Below are positions 4,538 to 57,162 of a stretch of 64,000 nt of DNA, one piece after another; positions within the stretch are counted from its first letter, which is position 1; each line of letters starts with the position of its first letter. The position numbers and the translations under genes are program-made. Below the pieces are notes generated by a model, which had not been told where the DNA came from, did not search any database, and saw nothing but the letters and a program-made list of their open reading frames with translations. Origin of the DNA: Tidjanibacter sp. GTDB lineage: Bacteria; Bacteroidota; Bacteroidia; Bacteroidales; Rikenellaceae. The DNA is taken from contig JAZOCT010000001.1 of NCBI GenBank assembly GCA_045596685.1, forward strand, positions 4,870-68,869, written 5' to 3'.

Positions 4538-5854
4538 TTATTTCCAATACTTCTCTACCAATTCGGCCTTAATTGTAACCTCCGACTTCTTGAAGTACTT
4601 GGCAAACAGAGTCCAAGCGGTGTCGAGCATCTCGGTGATGTCGATATTCACGTCAATGGAGAGCAACTTATCCGAATACTCCTTCGCAAACGCCAGAGCG
4701 CGCTCATCGTAGTCCGAAAGGTCAAAACCATTCTCCAACTTGGTCTTGGCACCCGCAGCATCCGAATACAAACGCACAGCGGCATTCATAACCTGGGGAT
4801 GGTCCTCGCGGGTCTTCTTGCCAATCACGAGTTGTTTCAGACGCGAAAGCGAGCGGAAGGGATCTACGATAACCTTGCCCGTATCGGTGTCGTTACGGAG
4901 GAAGAGCTGACCCTCGGTAATGTAACCCGTATTATCGGGAATTGCGTGGGTAATATCGCCACCCGAAAGGGTCGTAACGGCAATAATGGTAATCGAACCA
5001 CCCGAAGGCAACTGTACGGCTTTCTCGTAAATCTTCGCCAAGTCCGAGTAGAGCGAACCGGGCATCGAATCCTTCGAGGGAATCTGGTCCATACGGTTCG
5101 ACACGATAGCGAGTGCATCGGCGTAGAGGGTCATATCGGTGAGCAGCACCAGAACCTTCTCGCCCTTATCGGCAGCGAAATACTCTGCTGCTGTAAGTGC
5201 CATATCGGGCACCAACAGACGCTCCACAGGAGGATTCTCCGTTGTGTTCACAAAGCAAACAATCCTATCCAACACGCCCGCATTCTCAAACAAGTTCTTG
5301 AAATAGAGGAAGTCGTCGTTGGTCATACCCATACCGCCCAAGATAATCTTGTCGGCCTTTGCCCTCAAAGCCACATTGGCCATCACCTGGTTGTAGGGCT
5401 GGTCGGGGTCGGCAAAGAAAGGAATCTTCTGACCCGACACGATGGTGTTGTTAAGGTCGATACCTGCAATACCCGTAGCAATCAACTCCGAAGGCTGACG
5501 ACGACGGAAGGGATTTACGGTAGGACCGCCAATCTCCCTCTCCTCGCCCTCAACGGGGGCTCCTCCTTCGAGGGGCTCGCCATAGGCGTTGAAGAAACGA
5601 CCTGCCAGGCCATCGCCCACCTTCAACGTGGGGGGCACACCGTGAAACAGTACCTCGGCATCGGTAGAGATACCCTCGGTACCCTCAAACACCTGCAAGG
5701 TAACCTCGTCACCCATAATCTTAACCACCTGTGCAAGGTGACCACCAACGGTTGCGAGTTCGTCGTTACCCACACCCGTAGCGTGAAGTGTCACGGTTGC
5801 TTTGGTGATGTTGTCAATTTTGGTGTATATCTTCTGAAATGCTTTTGTAGTCAT
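4538..5854 (-). CDS. ntpB: V-type ATP synthase subunit B
   Basis: 438 aa with an A/B-type ATPase fold sequence (SRMDQIPSKDSMPGSLYSDLAKIYE, ITIIAVTTLSGGDITH). Confidence 0.9.
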   Translation of the reverse strand: MTTKAFQKIYTKIDNITKATVTLHATGVGNDELATVGGHLAQVVKIMGDEVTLQVFEGTEGISTDAEVLFHGVPPTLKVGDGLAGRFFNAYGEPLEGGAPVEGEEREIGGPTVNPFRRRQPSELIATGIAGIDLNNTIVSGQKIPFFADPDQPYNQVMANVALRAKADKIILGGMGMTNDDFLYFKNLFENAGVLDRIVCFVNTTENPPVERLLVPDMALTAAEYFAADKGEKVLVLLTDMTLYADALAIVSNRMDQIPSKDSMPGSLYSDLAKIYEKAVQLPSGGSITIIAVTTLSGGDITHAIPDNTGYITEGQLFLRNDTDTGKVIVDPFRSLSRLKQLVIGKKTREDHPQVMNAAVRLYSDAAGAKTKLENGFDLSDYDERALAFAKEYSDKLLSIDVNIDITEMLDTAWTLFAKYFKKSEVTIKAELVEKYWK

Positions 5855-5872
5855 ATCTCTTCTCCTCCAAGT

Positions 5873-7621
5873 TTATTTAGTGGTAGCAAATGCCCTGATT
5901 TCAGCCTCACCTTTTGCAAACGCCTCGCTCTTCCACTCGGTGTAGTTGAGTTGTTTGAAGAGGTTGATGAGGGTCTTGAAGAATGCCGAGCACTCCTCAA
6001 AGTCGGCAAAGTTGTACTCCTTGCGGCACATCTCCATCACAAAGTCGAACATATATTTTTGGCGGTCAATGGGGCAGTTGGCATCAATGTCATCGAATGC
6101 ATCCTGTTGCAAGATAACAAAGTCCACGAGTTCGCTCTTCCAGAACATCTCGTGATACTCTACGGGCACACCGTCGTCACCGAGAATGTTGATTTGCTCG
6201 GCTGCCTCTTTACCCCTACGCACGAGGGTCTTACCCTCCATTACGTTCTTAACCCAACCATCTTCGATGTGGTCATCGAGGTACTCCACGATTTCGGGAT
6301 ATTCGAGATATTTGGAGTAACTATCCAGCGGGTCGATAGCGGGATAGCGTTTCGAGTCGGCACGCTGCTGCGAGAGTGCATAGAAACACCTTGCAGCCTT
6401 CTTTGTGGACTCCGTAACGGGCTCCTTCAAGTTACCACCCGCAGGCGATACGGTACCGAGGAAAGTTACCGAACCGGTCACACCATTGCGCAAGTGTACC
6501 AAGCCCGCCCTCGCGTAGAACGACGAGATGATGGCCGAGAGGTCCATAGGGAATGCGTCCTGACCGGGAAGTTCCTCCAAACGGTTACTCATCTCACGAA
6601 GAGCCTGTGCCCAACGCGAAGTAGAGTCGGCCAACAGAAGCACCTTCAAACCCATAGCACGGTAGTACTCCGCGATGGTCATACCCGTGTAAACCGAAGC
6701 CTCACGAGCCGCAACGGGCATATTCGAGGTATTACAGATGATGGTTGTACGCTCCATAAGTTTGTGACCGGTACGGGGGTCGTCCAAGTGGGGGAACTCG
6801 GCGAAAATCTCCACCACCTCATTTGCACGCTCACCGCAGGCTACCATAATAATAAGGTCTGCCTCGGCCTGTTTCGAAATGGCGTGCTGCAACACAGTCT
6901 TACCTGCACCGAAAGGACCGGGAATGAAACCCGTACCGCCATCGGCAATGGGGTTGAAGGTATCAATAGCCCTCACACCTGTCTCCATAATACGGCTGGG
7001 ACGGGGTTTGGCGCTATACGCCTTGATGGCCTTCTTAACGGGCCAGCGCTGTACCATAGTCACCTCGTGGTCCTCACCCTTCTCGTCCGTAAGTACAGCC
7101 ACAACGGTATTCACATTGTACTGTCCCTCCTCTTTGAGCGACTTGATGGTGTAGGTCTGCTCCATAACAAAGGGAACCATAATTTTGTGGGCTACCCACA
7201 ACTCCTGAACCTCACCGAGCCAATCGCCTGCGGTAACCTTATCGCCCACCTTTGCGAGGGGCTTATAGTCCCAGAGTTTCTCGTAGTCGATGGGGTCGGT
7301 TTTGGTACCCCTCTCGATGAAGAGGCTCTCCATCCTTTCGAGGTCGTTTTGCAGACCGTCGTAGTTGCGCGAGATGATACCGGGAGCAAGTGTTGCTTCG
7401 AGCATATGGCCCTCAAACTCCACCTCGGTACCGATTCGCAAACCGCGTGTCGAGTCGAAGACCTGAACGTAGGCATCCTTACCCGTCACCTTAATCACCT
7501 CCGCCATCAACTTCACGCCACCAATGGTGATGTAGCAGATTTCGTTCTGCGACACAGCGCCCTCGGTGCGTACAATCACGATATTGGAGATAATACCTTG
7601 TACTTTACCAGTAGTTTTCAT
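5873..7621 (-). CDS. ntpA: V-type ATP synthase catalytic subunit A
   Basis: 582 aa. Walker A is GPFGAGKTV. The sequence also contains the non-homologous insert typical of A subunits. Confidence 0.9.
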   Translation of the reverse strand: MKTTGKVQGIISNIVIVRTEGAVSQNEICYITIGGVKLMAEVIKVTGKDAYVQVFDSTRGLRIGTEVEFEGHMLEATLAPGIISRNYDGLQNDLERMESLFIERGTKTDPIDYEKLWDYKPLAKVGDKVTAGDWLGEVQELWVAHKIMVPFVMEQTYTIKSLKEEGQYNVNTVVAVLTDEKGEDHEVTMVQRWPVKKAIKAYSAKPRPSRIMETGVRAIDTFNPIADGGTGFIPGPFGAGKTVLQHAISKQAEADLIIMVACGERANEVVEIFAEFPHLDDPRTGHKLMERTTIICNTSNMPVAAREASVYTGMTIAEYYRAMGLKVLLLADSTSRWAQALREMSNRLEELPGQDAFPMDLSAIISSFYARAGLVHLRNGVTGSVTFLGTVSPAGGNLKEPVTESTKKAARCFYALSQQRADSKRYPAIDPLDSYSKYLEYPEIVEYLDDHIEDGWVKNVMEGKTLVRRGKEAAEQINILGDDGVPVEYHEMFWKSELVDFVILQQDAFDDIDANCPIDRQKYMFDFVMEMCRKEYNFADFEECSAFFKTLINLFKQLNYTEWKSEAFAKGEAEIRAFATTK

Positions 7622-28971: not shown

Positions 28972-29300
28972 GGCTTTGTTTGTGTTAGTTAAACAATAGT
29001 ATTCTGCCTTTCTGCTATTGTGAAACCAACTACACAAAAAAGCGCAGGAGGACTTATGTAATTCAGAGGTACTGGCATACCTATACTACAACATAAGCAC
29101 CACCCACGCTTTGGCGTAGGCGTTAAGTGCCCATTGTTCTTGTAGTAATAAGAAAAGTGCCAGTTTTCTGAATTCGAACAATAGCAAACGCTACAAAATA
29201 TGTTTGTCAAGATAAATATAATCCTCTCAACACTGCAAATATAGGTATAAATAGCGATTTATATCTATTTATTTTGTATTTTTGTGCATAAAAATTAGTA

Positions 29301-29332
29301 GGCGTGCAACGAAATGCCCCTGTTTTGCATCT
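29301..29332 (+). promoter_or_regulatory. 32-nt conserved motif (candidate ECF-type promoter or operator), copy A
   Basis: GGCGTGCAACGAAATGCCCCTGTTTTGCATCT. It is 27/32 identical to 53798-53829 and lies 37 nt upstream of the lipoprotein ATG. Confidence 0.5.
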
Positions 29333-29369
29333 ATATGTTATAGAGCACAAACTTAACACCCTAACTACT

Positions 29370-29735
29370 ATGAAACGCGGAATCAAAAACATCCTTTTGA
29401 GCCTTGCAGGTTTCTCGGCTGCCCCCATTCTCACCGCCTGCTATGGTATGCCCGACAACTACTACGACGAGCCGGAGATGTTCAACGACATAAAAGGCTT
29501 CGTAGTCGATACGGAGTTGAACCCCATCAAAGATATTGAGGTCTATGTAGATGGACAGACTTGTCGCACCAATGAGAATGGCAGTTTCCACCTCGATGGC
29601 GAATTTTGGGGCTACACCACCCTCACCGCTACCGATGTGGATGGCGAGGCAAACGGTGGCGAATTCGGCACTGTGGATGTGCCCGTATCGGAGGAAAACC
29701 ACGCAATCATAAGTGTCGTAATGAGTAGAAAATAG
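29370..29735 (+). CDS. small lipoprotein with a carboxypeptidase-regulatory-like beta-sandwich domain (radical-SAM-associated)
   Basis: 121 aa with lipobox ILTAC. IKGFVVDTELNPIKDIEVYVDGQTCRTNENGSFHLDG fits the CarboxypepD_reg pattern. Confidence 0.65.
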   Translation: MKRGIKNILLSLAGFSAAPILTACYGMPDNYYDEPEMFNDIKGFVVDTELNPIKDIEVYVDGQTCRTNENGSFHLDGEFWGYTTLTATDVDGEANGGEFGTVDVPVSEENHAIISVVMSRK

Positions 29736-29739
29736 CGCT

Positions 29740-30816
29740 ATGGCAAACATCAAAATAGGACTACGCAAGAGGTTGGCACTCAATCTGTTTGCAGGCATCA
29801 AGCGCGAACTTGCCGAGAAACACGAGTTGCGCGAAATATTCTGGGAGTGTACCCTACGTTGCAACCTCAACTGTCGCCACTGCGGGAGCGATTGTCGCTC
29901 CTCGTCGGCAACACCCGATATGCCCGCCGAGGATTTTCTCGCGGCTGTGGACAAAATCACACCCCACGTCAATCCACACAAGGTGATGGTCGTAATCACC
30001 GGTGGTGAGGCCCTCTGTCGCAAAGACCTCGATAGTGTGGGGCGAGAACTCTACAAACGTGGCTACCCCTGGGGAATAGTCACAAATGGTATGCTCCTCA
30101 CAAAGGAGCGTATGCGCTCACTTGTAGCCTCGGGTCTGCGCTCCATTACGGTGTCGATTGACGGGTTCGAGGAGCAACATAACTACATACGTCGCAACCC
30201 CAATAGTTGGCAAAATGCCATCCGAGCACTCGATGTCATAACAGCCACCAAAGGTATCGCCTACGATGTCGTAACCTGCGTAAATAGAGATAATTACCGC
30301 CATCTTACCGAGTTCAAAGAGTTGCTCATTGCACACGGATGCAAGGCGTGGAGGCTCTTCACAATCTTCCCCGTAGGGAGGGCTGCCGAGGATGATGCGC
30401 TCCAACTCCCACCCGAGGAGTATCGCGGGCTGATGGATTTTATCGAAGCAACCCGCAAGGAGGGACGCATCCAGTGTAACTACGCCTGCGAGGGTTTCCT
30501 CGGAGGGTACGAGGCCGAAGTAAGGGACAACTTCTTCGGTTGTCAGGCGGGCATCGGCATTATAGGCATCAAGGTTGATGGCGCGATTTCGGGTTGTACG
30601 AGCATACGCGCGGGATTCGACCAGGGCAACATCTACACCGATGACATCTGGGATGTGTGGCAAAACCGCTTCGAGCCCTTCCGCAACCGCGCGTGGGCAC
30701 ACAAAGGGGTGTGCAAAGATTGCAAGATGTGGAAATTCTGCGAGGGCAACGGTATGCACCTCTACGACGACAACCACGAACTACTCCACTGCAACTACCA
30801 GAGATTGTGTAAGTAA
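29740..30816 (+). CDS. radical SAM protein with a C-terminal SPASM domain
   Basis: 358 aa. The CxxxCxxC motif is CNLNCRHC. The C-terminal Cys cluster is GCQAG...SGCTS...CKDCKMWKFCEGNG. Confidence 0.85.
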   Translation: MANIKIGLRKRLALNLFAGIKRELAEKHELREIFWECTLRCNLNCRHCGSDCRSSSATPDMPAEDFLAAVDKITPHVNPHKVMVVITGGEALCRKDLDSVGRELYKRGYPWGIVTNGMLLTKERMRSLVASGLRSITVSIDGFEEQHNYIRRNPNSWQNAIRALDVITATKGIAYDVVTCVNRDNYRHLTEFKELLIAHGCKAWRLFTIFPVGRAAEDDALQLPPEEYRGLMDFIEATRKEGRIQCNYACEGFLGGYEAEVRDNFFGCQAGIGIIGIKVDGAISGCTSIRAGFDQGNIYTDDIWDVWQNRFEPFRNRAWAHKGVCKDCKMWKFCEGNGMHLYDDNHELLHCNYQRLCK

Positions 30817-30847: not shown

Positions 30848-31624
30848 ATGAAGAAAATTCTACCTTTTATTCTACTATTTATACTCGCCATTCCGCAAGG
30901 GGCCTCGGCGCAAGAGAGATTATACACCGAAGAGCCCACCTATCTCACCGACTTTGAACAAGATTACGCAGAGAGAATCTACGAGATTGGAAAGTGGGCA
31001 ACAATAAGTAGTGGTGCGGTTGTGGCAAGTGGCGCACTCATCTGGTATCTTGGCGAGTTATCCATCCGCGAACAACTCAAAGATTCCGACGTGGTAAATG
31101 GTATTGTATCCACAGTAGGTTTGATGCAAACCCTTATGGGTGGCATTTGCCTTACAGCAGCGGTCCCCCTCTATCTGTGGGGCTTGGATTTGAATAATAA
31201 CCCCGATGGAATAAGCCTCGAAATGGGAGAAAAACAACGCGGTTGGGGCGGCAGATTGGATGTTGGTTGGGGATTTTCCAACACGCCAAACATCGGAGGT
31301 TCAATTGGTTACAACTTCAACCACAGACTCTTCATAGGTATCGGTGCGGGCTACGAATACGACCTCAATGGCGAGGGGCCCTACAACTATCCCGTCATCC
31401 CCGCCTATGCCGACATCAGGTACCGATTGGGCGGTAGTCGCATCACCCCCTATCTTGGCGTGAAGGCCGGTTTCGACTTCAATGGCGTGCCTATCCCCTA
31501 CGGCACCATTGATTGGGGTGTGAGCCAGCGATGCCGCAACTCGTCGGGCGCGTGGTGGTATGCCCTTTCGCTCTCCAATAACTACAACAACACTCTATCG
31601 TTTAGAATAAGTCGCTCATTTTAG
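30848..31624 (+). CDS. secreted/membrane protein with TM segments and a porin-like beta-strand C-terminal region
   Basis: 258 aa from MKKILPFILLFILAIPQGASA. There are two hydrophobic helices, followed by alternating aromatic/Gly strands (GYNFNHRLFIGIGAGYEYD). Confidence 0.55.
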   Translation: MKKILPFILLFILAIPQGASAQERLYTEEPTYLTDFEQDYAERIYEIGKWATISSGAVVASGALIWYLGELSIREQLKDSDVVNGIVSTVGLMQTLMGGICLTAAVPLYLWGLDLNNNPDGISLEMGEKQRGWGGRLDVGWGFSNTPNIGGSIGYNFNHRLFIGIGAGYEYDLNGEGPYNYPVIPAYADIRYRLGGSRITPYLGVKAGFDFNGVPIPYGTIDWGVSQRCRNSSGAWWYALSLSNNYNNTLSFRISRSF

Positions 31625-31726: not shown

Positions 31727-31854
31727 AAAAAAAACGCATAGAATCGAGCGAGTTATAGGCGCACAAGAAAGCGGGCTCCGCAGTTTACTAAACGTAAATG
31801 AGGTGCCCGCTTATCGCAGTGCAACGACTAAATCGCCGATTATATGCGTTTTTT
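31727..31854. repeat. structured palindromic repeat of about 125 nt, copy 3
   Basis: aaaaaaaacgcatagaatcg...cgattatatgcgtttttt. Apical motif cgcagtttac-taaac-gtaaatgag with helix aagcgggc/gcccgctt. It abuts the 3' end of tRNA-Arg. Confidence 0.85.
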
Positions 31855-40109: not shown

Positions 40110-40138
40110 ACACTTATCTATTATATGTTTGTTTGCTA

Positions 40139-40267
40139 CACACTGATTATACGCTGATTATTCACTGATATATACCGGTTACACGCTGATTATACGCTGA
40201 TTATGCACTGATATATACCGGTTATGCACTGATTATGCACTGGTATATACCAGTTATATACTGACAA
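40139..40267. repeat. phased repeat array with 11-bp sub-repeats in three units of about 43 bp
   Basis: Units are RCRCTGATTAT x2, YCACTGATATA and TACCGGTTAY. The third unit contains the perfect palindrome ctggtatataccag (40239-40252). The array lies 30-160 nt upstream of the gpx ATG. Confidence 0.85.
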
Positions 40268-40377: not shown

Positions 40378-40440
40378 GCGGTCAGCAGTCAGCGGTCAGC
40401 AGTCAGCCTTTTTTCGCGGGTATCTTTTTTAATACCCGCG
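40378..40440. repeat. (GTCAGCR)x4 heptamer array plus CGCGGGTAT-CTTTTTTA-ATACCCGCG hairpin
   Basis: gcggtcagcagtcagcggtcagcagtcagcc, then ttttttcgcgggtatcttttttaatacccgcg. The same hairpin recurs at 40811, 45684, 45783, 56802 and 57010. Confidence 0.9.
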
Positions 40441-40862
40441 CCCATTGGGGCGCACCATAGACCCGCACTTTACATCGTCGGCGGAGAAGCGACCTCCTTG
40501 TGAGGTCGTGGCGAGGGCGGAGGGCAAAAGCGTTAAAAAACAAAGACGGCAAATGCTTTGCCCGCGACAGCGTTTGTTTTAGGCTTTGCGCTCCGCACTC
40601 CCGCCAGAGATGTCGTGCGTGGCTTTTGCGCCACTTTTGCCACCAAAAGTGGCAAAGAAAAGCGGGCAACCAAGTTGCCCGCAACAAAGAGTGGTGGATG
40701 CCAACCGCCTCACTTGCAATGAGTCGTGGCAAGACGGATTTTACAGACCTCACCCCCGCTACGCGGACCCTCTCCTAACTTATGAGAGGGTTTTCCCCTT
40801 TTTTGTTCACAGGTATCTTTTTTAATACCCGCGAGGAACGGAAGGTTATTCCCCCTCTAAAT

Positions 40863-53574: not shown

Positions 53575-53692
53575 GTCTAACATCTAACGTCGCGGGCGAC
53601 AAATCGCCCGAGGAAATATTAGTGAAGATAGGGAATTTAGTGAATTTAGAGAAGAGAGCCCTAACCTCCCTAACCTCCCTAACCCTCCCTAA
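53575..53692. repeat. repeat cluster: GTCTAAC units, a CGCGGGC hairpin and a CCTAACCTC 9-mer array
   Basis: gtctaacatctaacgtc, then gcgggcgacaaatcgcccg. ccctaacctccctaacctccctaaccctccctaa (53658-53692) is the reverse complement of the TTAGGGAGG units at 1201. Confidence 0.9.
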
Positions 53693-53797
53693 TTGGGGTA
53701 GAGCAAAGGCTACACTAAAAGTTTTTTGCGTCGCTTTTTTACAAAAAAGCGACAGAGATGTGAAGTTTTTACAAAAAAATCAAAGAAAAATTAGGGG

Positions 53798-53829
53798 GGC
53801 GTGCAACGTTTTGCCCCTTTTATGCATCT
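53798..53829 (+). promoter_or_regulatory. 32-nt conserved motif (candidate ECF-type promoter or operator), copy B
   Basis: GGCGTGCAACGTTTTGCCCCTTTTATGCATCT, 22 nt upstream of the ECF sigma ATG. Confidence 0.5.
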
Positions 53830-53851
53830 TAATAAATAGAGAGAAAGGTAA

Positions 53852-54403
53852 ATGACCATCGAGAGCATCATACGGGGTTGCTGTGAGGGCGACGCGGAGG
53901 CTCGCAGGGAACTTTATGAGAGGTACGCCACAGCGATGTTCTCGCTTGTGAGGCGCTACATAAAGGTGCGTGCGACAGCCGAGGATGTGTTCCACGATGG
54001 CTTCGTTGTGCTCTACACCAAGATTGGTGAGTGGCGCGGAGATGGACCTTTCGAGGGGTGGATGAGGAGAATATTCATCAACACGGCACTCACACACCTA
54101 CGACGAGAGAGAGGTGTGGAGGCTGTGGATGAGGATGTGAGCGAACTACCGCCCGGCACCATAGGGGGTGCCCCTCCCGATGCGGTGGAGAGGTTGGGCG
54201 ACAAGGAACTCCTCGCTATGGTGGAACGACTACCCGAAGGGTTCCGAACAGTACTGATGCTACACGCGGTGGATGGTTACAGCCACGCAGAAATTGCCCA
54301 AATGCTCTCCATTGGCGAGGCAACAAGCCGTAGTCAGTTTTTGAGGGCAAAGGCAAGGCTCTCGGAGATGATTGCCAGAGAAAACAGAGAAAAGAGTCAC
54401 TAA
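53852..54403 (+). CDS. ECF-type RNA polymerase sigma-70 family factor
   Basis: 183 aa. Region 2 is FHDGFVVLY...FEGWMRRIFINTAL. Region 4 is VLMLHAVDGYSHAEIAQMLSIGEATSRSQFLRAK. Confidence 0.85.
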   Translation: MTIESIIRGCCEGDAEARRELYERYATAMFSLVRRYIKVRATAEDVFHDGFVVLYTKIGEWRGDGPFEGWMRRIFINTALTHLRRERGVEAVDEDVSELPPGTIGGAPPDAVERLGDKELLAMVERLPEGFRTVLMLHAVDGYSHAEIAQMLSIGEATSRSQFLRAKARLSEMIARENREKSH

Positions 54404-54434: not shown

Positions 54435-55736
54435 ATGAAAGATATTTTGGACGATAAATTAACCCAAGAGGTGGGCGATAAGTTGAGAGGCTTCCGCGAA
54501 GAGCCACCCGCAGGGATGTTCGAGCGCATCGAGCAGACCTTGCAGGCGAGTGGCGTTGTGAAGCCCGCAACAACCCCCGCTGTGCAGAGTGAGCCCGTGA
54601 AGGTCGTGCCCCTGTGGAACCGTTTGTGGGTGAAGGGTGTGGCGGCAACTCTGGCCGCAGCCTCGCTTGCAGTGGCCCTGATGGTTGGGTTGAGAGAGAA
54701 TATGCCCGAGGAGGTGGTGGTTGCACAGCAGATGCCTCCAATGGAGGTCCCCACACCCGAAATCCAGGCCACCGAGGCGGTGGAGGTCGAAGAGGTGGAG
54801 ATGTTGGCGGCAACCATTGCGCCCCGAGTTGCAAAACCGATGGTGGCAAAGGTTACAATGGAGACTATGCCCATCGTAGAACAGGTTGAGAGCGAGAAAC
54901 AAACAACACCCGAGGGCGACCCAAACCAAACAACAACCATCAGCAAGAAGAACAAAAACACCAAGACCACACGCTCTCGTCAGCGCTCTTCGGCGCGTAG
55001 GAGCGATGCGGAGTTGGAGGAGTATTGGCGCAGTATCTTCACCGAGGAGCCTCGCAAGAGGAGTCTTGCACATCCTACGCAGGTGGGGCTCTACGCCTCG
55101 AACCTCGGCTTCGACCAGGGACACATCAACTCCAATGAGGTGGTGAATAGTTCTATGCTGCTCACCGACAACAATCAACTCGCCTCGGGTGGCAACTATC
55201 TGGCACCCACTCTTGTACAGCCCAAACCCAAGTCACATCTCGAACACTTTATGCCCGTTACGGTGGGTGTGACGGTGAGTTATGCGCTGGGTGACTGGAT
55301 ATCGCTCGACAGCGGTCTGCTCTACACCAACCTCTACTCCACAAGCGATGCTTCGGGAACAATAAGTGACTTCGGCAGAAGGCGCACGTTGGATTACCTC
55401 GGTGTGCCGCTCGCAATGTCGGTCTACTTTGCCGATTTTGACCGCCTCTCGCTCTATGGTCGTCTGGGGGGTACGGCAGAGTTGTGTATCAGCGCCAAAG
55501 ATAAGGAGTATATGGATGGCGTAATGACCAAAAAGACCAAACTCGATGTTGCACCTCTCACCTTCTCGCTCGATGCAGCGGTGGGTGCAGGGTATGCTCT
55601 CTGGGGAGGTTTCGGACTCTTTGGTGAGGTGGGTTGTTCCTATTGGATGGCCCCCGACGACTACCCCGAAAACTATCGCACAATTCACCCATTGAGCCTC
55701 TCCATCAGGGCGGGTTTGCGTTTCACCTTTAACTAA
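54435..55736 (+). CDS. putative anti-sigma-like protein with a C-terminal outer-membrane beta-barrel domain
   Basis: It follows the sigma gene directly. It has one TM segment (VAATLAAASLAVALMV), a low-complexity linker and C-terminal porin-like strands ending in RFTFN. Confidence 0.5.
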   Translation: MKDILDDKLTQEVGDKLRGFREEPPAGMFERIEQTLQASGVVKPATTPAVQSEPVKVVPLWNRLWVKGVAATLAAASLAVALMVGLRENMPEEVVVAQQMPPMEVPTPEIQATEAVEVEEVEMLAATIAPRVAKPMVAKVTMETMPIVEQVESEKQTTPEGDPNQTTTISKKNKNTKTTRSRQRSSARRSDAELEEYWRSIFTEEPRKRSLAHPTQVGLYASNLGFDQGHINSNEVVNSSMLLTDNNQLASGGNYLAPTLVQPKPKSHLEHFMPVTVGVTVSYALGDWISLDSGLLYTNLYSTSDASGTISDFGRRRTLDYLGVPLAMSVYFADFDRLSLYGRLGGTAELCISAKDKEYMDGVMTKKTKLDVAPLTFSLDAAVGAGYALWGGFGLFGEVGCSYWMAPDDYPENYRTIHPLSLSIRAGLRFTFN

Positions 55737-55745
55737 TTGGGCACT

Positions 55746-56582
55746 ATGAAGAGATTTTGTGATTTTATACGGATTGCAGTGGTGCTGATGGTCGGTGCTC
55801 TGGCGTGGGCGTGTAGTGCGGATTACGAGCCGATGGGGGACGCCGCACCAGAGGCTAATGGCGAATATATTACCGCTTTCGGTGTGCTATCTTCCTCCTA
55901 TTCGACCATCACAACCGACTCCAATGTGGTGCTCTTTATTGCCGAAATTGGAGAGCAAACCTCTGTTGAGGAGTTGGAAAGTAAAAGCGGGCGTGTGATG
56001 TTCAACTATACGATTTTGGGCAATAACCCCGCAGGCGGATTTTTCGTGAGGCTCAACCGATTCTATCCGTTGGTAGTTAAGGATATGGAGGTCTTTACTC
56101 CCGAGGATAAGGCCACAAGGTCATCCACACCAAGTGGTGGCGCGTGGTTGGAGGATGAGAACTTCACCTCAATTCTCGACGCTCCTTATATGCCCTTTGA
56201 GGCGAGTGTGGGGGGCGGATATATCAATGTGAATGTCTGCTACCTCTCGACCAAGAGCGAGAGTGAGGAGGTGCCCGATGTGGACCTCTACTACGACACT
56301 GTGGTCTCCACCGCAGATACGGCTGTATTCCAACTTGTAGGCGATGATGAGGAGGAGATGTATGAGGAGGGGGCTGTGGCACGCTTCCAATGGTTCTCCT
56401 TCCGCATTGTGGAGCAGATGGAGGAGGCCTTGCAGGGGGTGAATCTCTACGCTTTCTATTGGCGTTGGTGGGAGAATCAAGACGAACCACTGCTGGGTAC
56501 CAAAGAGTATACGAGTGTGCTGAATAACGATACTGTTGGTGGTGGTGCGACGGGTAGAGTGATGGCGTTCAGCGAGTTGTGA
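55746..56582 (+). CDS. lipoprotein, possibly NigD-like
   Basis: Lipobox LAWAC. The size and beta-rich pattern resemble NigD-like proteins. The assignment is from memory only. Confidence 0.4.
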   Translation: MKRFCDFIRIAVVLMVGALAWACSADYEPMGDAAPEANGEYITAFGVLSSSYSTITTDSNVVLFIAEIGEQTSVEELESKSGRVMFNYTILGNNPAGGFFVRLNRFYPLVVKDMEVFTPEDKATRSSTPSGGAWLEDENFTSILDAPYMPFEASVGGGYINVNVCYLSTKSESEEVPDVDLYYDTVVSTADTAVFQLVGDDEEEMYEEGAVARFQWFSFRIVEQMEEALQGVNLYAFYWRWWENQDEPLLGTKEYTSVLNNDTVGGGATGRVMAFSEL

Positions 56583-56708: not shown

Positions 56709-56801
56709 ATAGCGAGTGCAAAAGTACTACTTTTTTCAAAAAGTGCAAGCGTTTGAGTAAAAATTTTTTCTTCGACCACCAATTTTCACTCCCATTATTT
56801 A

Positions 56802-57035
56802 CGGGTATCTTTTTTAATACCCGCGACTAAAAAACAGACCTCACCCGCCTTCGGCACTGCTCGGTGAGGACACCGAGCGCAATTACGACCACCCCTCCAA
56901 ACCTCCCCTATCGTAGGGGAGGCTTGACAGACCTCACCCGCCTTCGGCACCCTCTCCTAACTTATGAGAGGGTTTTTTCCTACAAAATTAGAGGTCCCAC
57001 CCCTTTGTTCTCGGGTGTCTTTTTTAATACCCGAG
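56802..57035. repeat. hairpin and repeat cluster upstream of the polysaccharide locus
   Basis: GGGTAT hairpins at 56802-56825 and 57010-57035. cagacctcacccgccttcggcac occurs twice (56834, 56927). Also present are hairpin ccctctcctaacttatgagaggg and hairpins gctcggtg..caccgagc and cctcccct..aggggagg. Confidence 0.85.
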
Positions 57036-57162
57036 AATAAGGAAAGGAATCCTTAACATTAAACGCTAAAAACAGCCCCCAAAATGCGCAAAAATCCCCA
57101 CAAGATGTGCAATTTTTCCATAGGGGGGGGGTAAAATCAAAGGTAAGAAATTGAAAAAAATA

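Follow-up and report, generated by a model that had tools for sequence, protein, structure and literature searches.

We describe here two closely similar 32-nt strings in a stretch of 64,000 nucleotides from Tidjanibacter sp. (Bacteroidota, Rikenellaceae; contig JAZOCT010000001.1, positions 4,870 to 68,869), the whole of which we refer to as the window. One string lies upstream of an operon encoding a lipoprotein, a radical S-adenosylmethionine (SAM) enzyme and a putative outer-membrane protein; the other lies upstream of an operon encoding an extracytoplasmic function (ECF) sigma factor, a predicted anti-sigma factor and a further lipoprotein. Homologues of the sigma factor likewise point to a Tidjanibacter-like member of the Rikenellaceae living in animal guts. 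An earlier reading made from the letters alone (the sequence-only reading) had called the ECF sigma, radical SAM and lipoprotein genes, and domain and profile matches agree with every one of those calls. The features of the two loci are these.

29288-29298, + strand: A-rich tract with TTAG, resembling an UP element, 5' of the -35 element of the radical SAM operon; the repeat formed by the two loci extends to AAAAATTAG

29301-29332, + strand: predicted ECF-type promoter of the lipoprotein/radical SAM/outer-membrane-protein operon, conserved upstream of orthologous operons; -35 GTGCAAC at 29304-29310, spacer block GCCCC at 29316-29320, -10 GCATCT at 29327-29332

29370-29735, + strand: lipoprotein of 121 aa, lipobox LTAC followed by YGMP, CarboxypepD_reg-like fold

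29740-30816, + strand: TIGR04133 radical SAM/SPASM enzyme (580.8 bits, cutoff 425)

30848-31624, + strand: secreted protein of 258 aa with a signal peptide and the C-terminus ...RSF; weak match to OMP_b-brl (E = 4e-4, below cutoff)

53772-53794, + strand: A-rich tract with TTAG, 5' of the sigma promoter

53798-53829, + strand: predicted ECF-type autoregulatory promoter of the sigma operon, indicated by matrix score, conservation and RNA contig ends; -35 GTGCAAC at 53801-53807, GCCCC at 53813-53817, -10 GCATCT at 53824-53829

53852-54403, + strand: ECF sigma factor, EcfO/Das1-like, with Sigma70_r2, r4_2 and ECF domains

54435-55736, + strand: predicted anti-sigma factor of Reo/Dma architecture (OMP_b-brl 30.8 bits, cutoff 28.7; AlphaFold2 model)

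55746-56582, + strand: lipoprotein with weak NigD-family similarity (NF051862 NigD1/NigD2, 27.3 bits, cutoff 60)

The two strings, GGCGTGCAACGAAATGCCCCTGTTTTGCATCT (29301-29332) and GGCGTGCAACGTTTTGCCCCTTTTATGCATCT (53798-53829), are both on the + strand and lie where the sequence-only reading had placed them, and its measurements hold: the copies are equal at 27 of 32 positions (the mismatches fall at motif positions 12, 13, 14, 22 and 25), the distance from their 3' ends to the start codon is 37 nt (ATG at 29370) and 22 nt (ATG at 53852), respectively, and GCAAC is separated from CATCT by 17 nt in both. Their similarity reaches further upstream than had been noticed, to AAAAATTAG (43 nt, repeat family D15). 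The shared pattern has two matches in the window and none in any of 100 dinucleotide-preserving shuffles. Scored with a position-weight matrix made from 35 related sites, the copy at 53798 reaches 58.4 bits and that at 29301 reaches 46.4 bits, while nothing else in the 64 kb exceeds 2.9 and 20 shuffles yielded at most 18.0.

Promoters read by ECF sigma factors are recognized by an AAC-bearing -35 element and a -10 element separated by some 16-17 nt of free sequence. Both copies have an AAC-containing -35 block and a -10 block of the ECF (group 4) kind, TGCAAC-N16-GCATCT, and the full layout runs from an A-rich tract to -35 (G)TGCAAC, then a 16-nt spacer with GCCCC, then -10 GCATCT(A). The A-tract is conserved too, its positions carrying about 1.3 bits each among the 35 related sites. 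Transcription would start about 7-10 nt past the -10 element, and the predicted starts lie near 29339-29342 for the radical SAM operon and near 53836-53839 for the sigma operon. A sigma-54 promoter was considered and rejected by inspection, there being no GG at -24 and positions 12-15 being variable. Our literature searches on ECF03 and TGCAAC found no promoter logo.

Sigma orthologues of 65-89% identity keep the gene order lipB, sigma, barrel protein, lipoprotein. When the regions upstream of these sigma genes are aligned, the motif is invariant and the flanking intergenic DNA has diverged, and in every sigma orthologue examined the motif lies 21-26 nt 5' of the ATG, the position expected of an autoregulatory promoter. 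The motif is likewise kept in at least 15 Tidjanibacter genome bins, and over Tidjanibacter/Rikenellaceae genomes as a whole its invariance extends to sigma orthologues of 62-93% identity. A genome-wide pattern search had been proposed by the sequence-only reading; we ran it across species, scanning one genome for each of 185,579 species with GTGCAAC-N5-GCCCC-N5-TGCATC, and obtained at least 50 loci. Among the matches listed, 31 are in bins labelled Tidjanibacter or Alistipes (1-3 listed per bin), 3 are in other Bacteroidota and 16 are in other phyla, these last being chance occurrences inside open reading frames of GC-rich genomes. Each Rikenellaceae match listed has a gene or a small-RNA gene downstream in the orientation of the motif, and where the contig continues the protein-coding targets of the listed matches start 21-51 nt past it. 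What follows the motif is the sigma operon at no fewer than 15 listed loci, a lipoprotein-radical SAM operon at L013, L030 and L055, a conserved non-coding unit at L026, L028, L044, L045, L053 and L054, tandem TIGR04134-like lipoproteins at L018 and L038, and genes for other secreted proteins, namely serpins (L036, L038), an outer-membrane-protein-like product (L019) and a DUF5683 protein (L011). We note that the serpin genes, at L036:189-1412 (-) and L038:4893-6107 (+) in two Tidjanibacter bins, match PF00079 at 309-320 bits, encode signal peptides and stand directly behind the motif, so that a secreted protease inhibitor appears in the predicted stress regulon. Whether the motif falls inside a long open frame was also tried as a test and was set aside as non-discriminating: all 16 matches from other phyla do so, as do 16 of the 31 from Rikenellaceae, because stop-free frames span short intergenic gaps.

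We also collected sigma homologues of 36-47% identity by protein similarity, without regard to the motif, from 80 metagenome loci, 76 of which were usable. With a relaxed pattern, TGCAAC-N15/16-(T)GCATCT(A/T) was present 10-60 nt 5' of the ATG in 23 of the 76, with spacers that are unrelated to one another; another group of these loci reads ATGCAGC...ACATC. Since the distant homologues keep TGCAAC and GCATCT with unrelated spacers, conservation shrinks to two hexamer blocks at promoter spacing, and the GCCCC block is, on this comparison, a feature of the lineage and no universal requirement.

The link to the radical SAM operon was examined through six orthologous operons (63-89% identity of the enzyme) that were fetched by exact-protein look-up, ignoring the motif. 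The sequence-only reading had asked whether the motif is conserved upstream of such operons, and five of the six carry it 5' of the first lipoprotein gene, as follows.

L136: GATGCAAC...GCCCCC...GTGTGTCTA

L137: GATGCAAC...GCCCCC...TGCATCTA

L138: GTGCAAC-TATTTGGCGCTCATT-TGCGTCAA

L139: GTGCAAC...GGCATCAT

L141: TTGCAAC...AACGTCTA

In these five operons the two hexamer-like blocks are conserved and the -10 element varies between GCATC, GCGTC and ACGTC, the latter two of which contain CGTC, the usual form of an ECF -10 element. The three operons found by pattern and the five of six fetched by protein together provide comparative support for the earlier claim that the radical SAM operon would belong to the regulon of the sigma factor encoded at 53852.

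The radical SAM operon has the order that defines the TIGR04133/TIGR04134 system (NCBIfam hypothetical equivalogs), in which a small lipoprotein precedes a full-length enzyme: the enzyme scores above its cutoff, and 4 nt separate the end of the lipoprotein gene from the radical SAM start. The window lipoprotein differs in that its match to TIGR04134, the "radical SAM-associated putative lipoprotein", is weak (32.6 bits, below the cutoff of 39.8). A full-text literature search for TIGR04133 found no paper on its function or regulation. The lipoproteins associated with these enzymes (window 29370-29450; L018:3899-5371; L038:6150-6620; L136-L141) have in common a signal peptide that fits MK+G(I/L)KN.LLSL.GFS, and just past the lipobox cysteine they carry YG(C/M/T/S)P, which is duplicated in one paralogue (MYGCP...EYGCP) and might be where the radical SAM/SPASM enzyme acts. 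Two TAnnTTTG boxes lie upstream of the radical SAM motif, at 29199-29206 and 29277-29284 (+), and none upstream of the sigma motif. TAnnTTTG is the housekeeping -7 element of Bacteroidota and is enriched in the window (64 observed, 31 expected); the radical SAM operon may have an additional basal promoter, that is, dual promoters.

The non-coding unit found behind the motif in six Tidjanibacter/Alistipes bins is about 125 nt long, begins directly past the motif and finishes in a GC-rich hairpin and T-run, an intrinsic terminator. The six candidate small-RNA units are located as follows.

L044:2719-2845, + strand

L053:1026-1152, + strand

L054:209-334, - strand

L045:4116-4242, - strand

L028:1550-1675, - strand

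L026:4683-4812, + strand

The consensus fold has three hairpins and 34 pairs, 12 of them supported by compensatory double changes; one loop, CUUUCUCUCCCUU, and one single-stranded segment, CCUACCAACUUC, are invariant. No such gene lies in the 64-kb window, and the loci that hold the small RNA or the 125-nt repeat (a separate element, described below) have no match in Rfam. A terminator-ended unit placed immediately behind the motif is difficult to account for unless the motif serves as its promoter.

The window sigma operon matches the EcfO-Reo / Das1-Dma1-NigD type. The closest solved structures to the sigma factor are AlgU and Escherichia coli RpoE (E about 1e-16), and it is 45% identical to the sigma factors of the sigma-Dma-NigD loci L063, L064, L068, L081 and L087, where the same three-gene array has a NigD_N-like lipoprotein (88 bits) as its third gene. 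This identity and the shared synteny lend indirect support to a possible place for it in ECF group 21, as an orthologue of BT_4720 / EcfO. The product of 54435-55736 consists, in order, of a conserved cytoplasmic N-terminus, one hydrophobic helix (64-87), a low-complexity linker and a C-terminal beta-barrel ending RFTFN. In its AlphaFold2 model, residues 8-19 and 28-38 are helical and 64-87 form a transmembrane helix; the predicted local distance difference test score (pLDDT) is below 50 over 89-185 and 85-94 in the barrel. This is the architecture of the EcfO-Reo / Das-Dma anti-sigma factors, encoded next to an ECF sigma gene, and the barrel protein is similar to the Dma-like protein of the NigD-bearing locus L064 (BLASTP E = 6e-28). 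The product of the third gene, 55746-56582, gives a weak match to Pfam NigD_N (E = 0.085) and has no BLASTP similarity to the NigD_N-like protein of L064.

Reo, in Bacteroides fragilis and Phocaeicola vulgatus, and Dma1, in Bacteroides thetaiotaomicron, are dual-membrane anti-sigma factors that hold EcfO and Das1, respectively (PMC10927553, PMC9308784, PMC13114119). When the anti-sigma gene is disrupted in P. vulgatus, expression goes up 33-fold for the sigma gene, 70-fold for the anti-sigma gene and 59- to 360-fold for nigD paralogues (PMC9308784 supplement); since the sigma gene rises when the anti-sigma factor is lost, autoregulation of EcfO-Reo is an experimental fact in a relative. The window operon shares with EcfO-Reo (that is, Das1-Dma1(-NigD2)) the gene order sigma, dual-membrane anti-sigma, lipoprotein, as well as a homologous anti-sigma factor, a (here predicted) autoregulatory promoter before the sigma gene and, as predicted in the window's lineage, a regulon of envelope and surface proteins. 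The two differ in that the third gene of the window operon is only weakly NigD-like, in that the Bacteroidaceae-like loci have ATGCAGC...ACATC upstream where the window has GTGCAAC...GCATCT, and in that the regulon in Bacteroidaceae consists mainly of nigD paralogues, whereas for Rikenellaceae we predict the radical SAM-lipoprotein-outer-membrane-protein operon together with, in relatives, a small RNA, a serpin and outer-membrane proteins.

A broader comparison is with sigma-E (RpoE) and RseA of E. coli, an envelope-stress system with the sigma-E-dependent small RNAs MicA, RybB and MicL. The likeness lies in the AAC of the -35 element, the autoregulated promoter, and an envelope regulon with a small RNA made from the same type of promoter. 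The sigma-E promoter is, however, GGAACTT/TCAAA rather than TGCAAC/GCATCT; RseA ends in the periplasm, whereas the window anti-sigma factor is predicted to span both membranes; and the sigma-E-dependent small RNAs target porin mRNAs, whereas the candidate small RNA here complements the leader of the sigma mRNA itself. We also note a locus from Flammeovirgaceae (L042), with the same promoter motif and a sigma factor 37% identical to that of the window, in which the N-terminal and transmembrane part (225 aa, 5578-6255 (-)) and a secreted protein of 285 aa (4718-5575 (-)), the latter with no Pfam hit, are encoded by separate genes. This arrangement hints at a history of splitting or fusion in the anti-sigma family.

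RNA evidence comes from the assembled contigs of four or five metatranscriptomes, and both operons are present in them. In three of four runs the sigma-operon contigs begin at 53853 (two runs) or 53866 (the third), which is 24-37 nt past the motif, and in those three runs coverage of 53756-53852 is almost nil. These contig ends are suggestive, and the RNA data as a whole fit the promoter model without testing it.

We consider it likely, from these comparisons, that both strings are promoter cores to which RNA polymerase is directed by the ECF sigma product of 53852-54403, and the idea put forward in the sequence-only reading, that this sigma factor controls both operons, is in our judgement the best explanation of them. 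Several observations weigh against this interpretation. A conserved spacer block such as GCCCC, seen within Tidjanibacter, is atypical of a sigma-factor promoter, and the scan pattern demanded GCCCC and was biased to that extent. No motif is present at the remaining operon of the six, the Alistipes-type L140, so the link to the radical SAM operon is not universal. In the deepest RNA run the sigma contig reaches 53741, through the motif, and the same is seen in contigs of the radical SAM operon and, in a related genome, of the small RNA; such contigs could stem from DNA carry-over or from upstream promoters (the TAnnTTTG boxes at 29199 and 29277). In P. vulgatus, a gene for a radical SAM protein of 356 aa, not necessarily of TIGR04133, has a fold change of 1.1 in the anti-sigma mutant (PMC9308784), so that membership of the radical SAM operon in the regulon is lineage-specific at best; this gene, with the same proviso as to family, is induced 6-fold by a membrane-damaging toxin. 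Lastly, the link between the window sigma factor and the site is made only by the logic of autoregulation and by co-occurrence.

This last point leaves some room for the motif to be a promoter read by another ECF paralogue, in which case the copy in front of the gene at 53852 would reflect a cascade of sigma factors and no autoregulation. Bacteroidota average about 22 ECF sigma factors per genome (PMC7826278), and 64 kb of the present genome is visible. We nevertheless think a different paralogue unlikely, as the motif tracks the family of the window sigma factor far out, to L042 at 37% identity and to many homologues at 36-47%, and the homologous EcfO is autoregulated by experiment (PMC9308784). 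Nor do we give much credence to the view that the motif is the operator of a dimeric regulator recognizing inverted TGCA...TGCA half-sites, an idea to which the radical SAM copy lends itself by containing a 5-bp inverted repeat, TGCAA-N15-TTGCA, and for which the conserved GCCCC spacer, unusual in a promoter, also speaks. Any of T, A or G may precede the second TGCA, so that the inverted symmetry is not maintained; L138 and L141 lose the second TGCA yet retain C(A/G)TC; the spacing shifts by 1 nt in distant homologues; and the small-RNA units need a promoter at the position of the motif. Finally, we regard as very improbable a third view, in which the motif takes no part in starting transcription and is either a piece of some dispersed repeat or a hairpin (GGGGGC...GCCCCC). 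In its favour, the genome is rich in hairpin repeats, and the sigma copies have a G-run and a C-run flanking the -35 element that could pair (-13 kcal/mol). Against it, folding of the motif regions does not surpass that of shuffles (z = -0.9 and -1.0), the G-run is missing from the small-RNA and serpin copies, and the listed copies number 1-3 per bin, all of them pointing at a gene or a small-RNA gene that lies downstream. A dispersed repeat with no bias toward gene 5' ends, which the sequence-only reading had named as an outcome that would speak against its proposal, is thus not what the listed matches reveal.

A resemblance between the motif and the 3' arm of a family of 125-nt repeats (for example at 1445-1474), which the sequence-only reading had left as a possible coincidence, turns out to be coincidental. 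These repeats are long hairpins, in which GTGCAACG sits in the stem and TATATGCG is part of the terminal inverted repeat, with folding energies of -64 and -57 kcal/mol (z = -9.4 and -7.4), and the motif copies lack the terminal inverted repeats AAAACGCATATAA / TTATATGCGTTTT that mark members of the family. The dispersed intergenic repeats of about 125 nt lie at:

1349-1474

31729-31854

about 17010-17131

Copies of the repeat also occur 3' of the small RNA at L044, L053, L045 and L028; from copy to copy the inner stem shows co-variation, whereas the apical GCAGTTTaCT...AAATGAGG is conserved. The family may be a MITE, a REP-like element or an RNA. Other intergenic repeats in the window include tandem arrays at 1233-1316, 53661-53695 and 40137-40265 (GAACTCCCA x8, CCCTAACCT-like units and 11/21-nt TATACGCTGAT-like units). 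Just 5' of the sigma promoter, the segment 53642-53755 has a depth of 494 in one RNA run, compared with 38 for the operon. A hairpin, CGGGTATCTTTTTTAATACCCG, is present in four copies with similar flanks (40409-40452, 40802-40845, 56794-56837 and 57004-57047), and this small intergenic repeat family is partly paired with ACCCTCTCCTAACTTATGAGAGGGTTTT at 40767 and 56949.

Returning to the reading of both strings as promoters for the EcfO/Das1-like sigma factor, we propose the following mechanism. The copy at 53798 would drive the three-gene operon of sigma factor, anti-sigma factor and lipoprotein, providing positive autoregulation as in EcfO-Reo / Das1-Dma1, and the copy at 29301 would put the lipoprotein / TIGR04133 radical SAM / outer-membrane-protein operon in the same regulon. 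Damage to the outer membrane, the inferred inducing signal, would lead to loss of the anti-sigma factor and the release of its inferred partner, and the free sigma factor would then raise its own level and turn on the radical SAM operon and, in related genomes, genes for a serpin, outer-membrane proteins and lipoproteins, as well as the small RNA.

The candidate small RNA may add a further step. A 10-nt segment of the sigma mRNA leader is its perfect complement:

53839-53848, + strand: GAGAGAAAGG, perfect complement of the invariant small-RNA loop 5'-CCUUUCUCUC-3'

This segment ends 4 nt before the sigma start codon, and the 64 kb contain no second 10-mer complement of CCUUUCUCUC (0.73 expected over the whole window); the complementarity was noticed after the fact. 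(Counting exact complements replaced the folding of whole-molecule duplexes against the starts of open reading frames in the window, in which spurious long duplexes dominated.) With G-U pairs allowed, pairing between GAGAGAAAGG and the loop is kept in 13 of 17 sigma leaders, and the neighbouring bases vary. The complementarity suggests feedback of the small RNA on the sigma mRNA; the purine tract of GAGAGAAAGG could, on the other hand, be no more than a translation signal. We offer only tentatively the fuller proposal that the sigma factor drives a small RNA of about 125 nt whose loop pairs with the sigma leader to give negative feedback, and that the radical SAM enzyme modifies the lipoprotein, probably at YG(C/M/T/S)P, in envelope repair or defence.

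As a type, what the window shows, an autoregulatory ECF promoter with one additional regulon member, is nothing unusual; what is new is the radical SAM link, a regulon composition unlike that of Bacteroidaceae, and a candidate sigma-dependent small RNA. The predicted tie between the TIGR04133/TIGR04134 system and an EcfO/Das1-type sigma factor for outer-membrane stress appears not to have been made before. It would give this system, which is widespread in gut Bacteroidota, a first physiological lead, placing it in a testable context of outer-membrane stress in an uncultured gut bacterium. It would also widen the regulon of the EcfO/Das1-type sigma family, as the prediction for Rikenellaceae differs from the nigD-centred regulon of Bacteroidaceae, and the defined motif offers a promoter model for predicting regulons in uncultured relatives. 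If the small RNA is as we predict, it would exemplify, in Bacteroidota, ECF sigma control of a small RNA that possibly feeds back on that same sigma factor.

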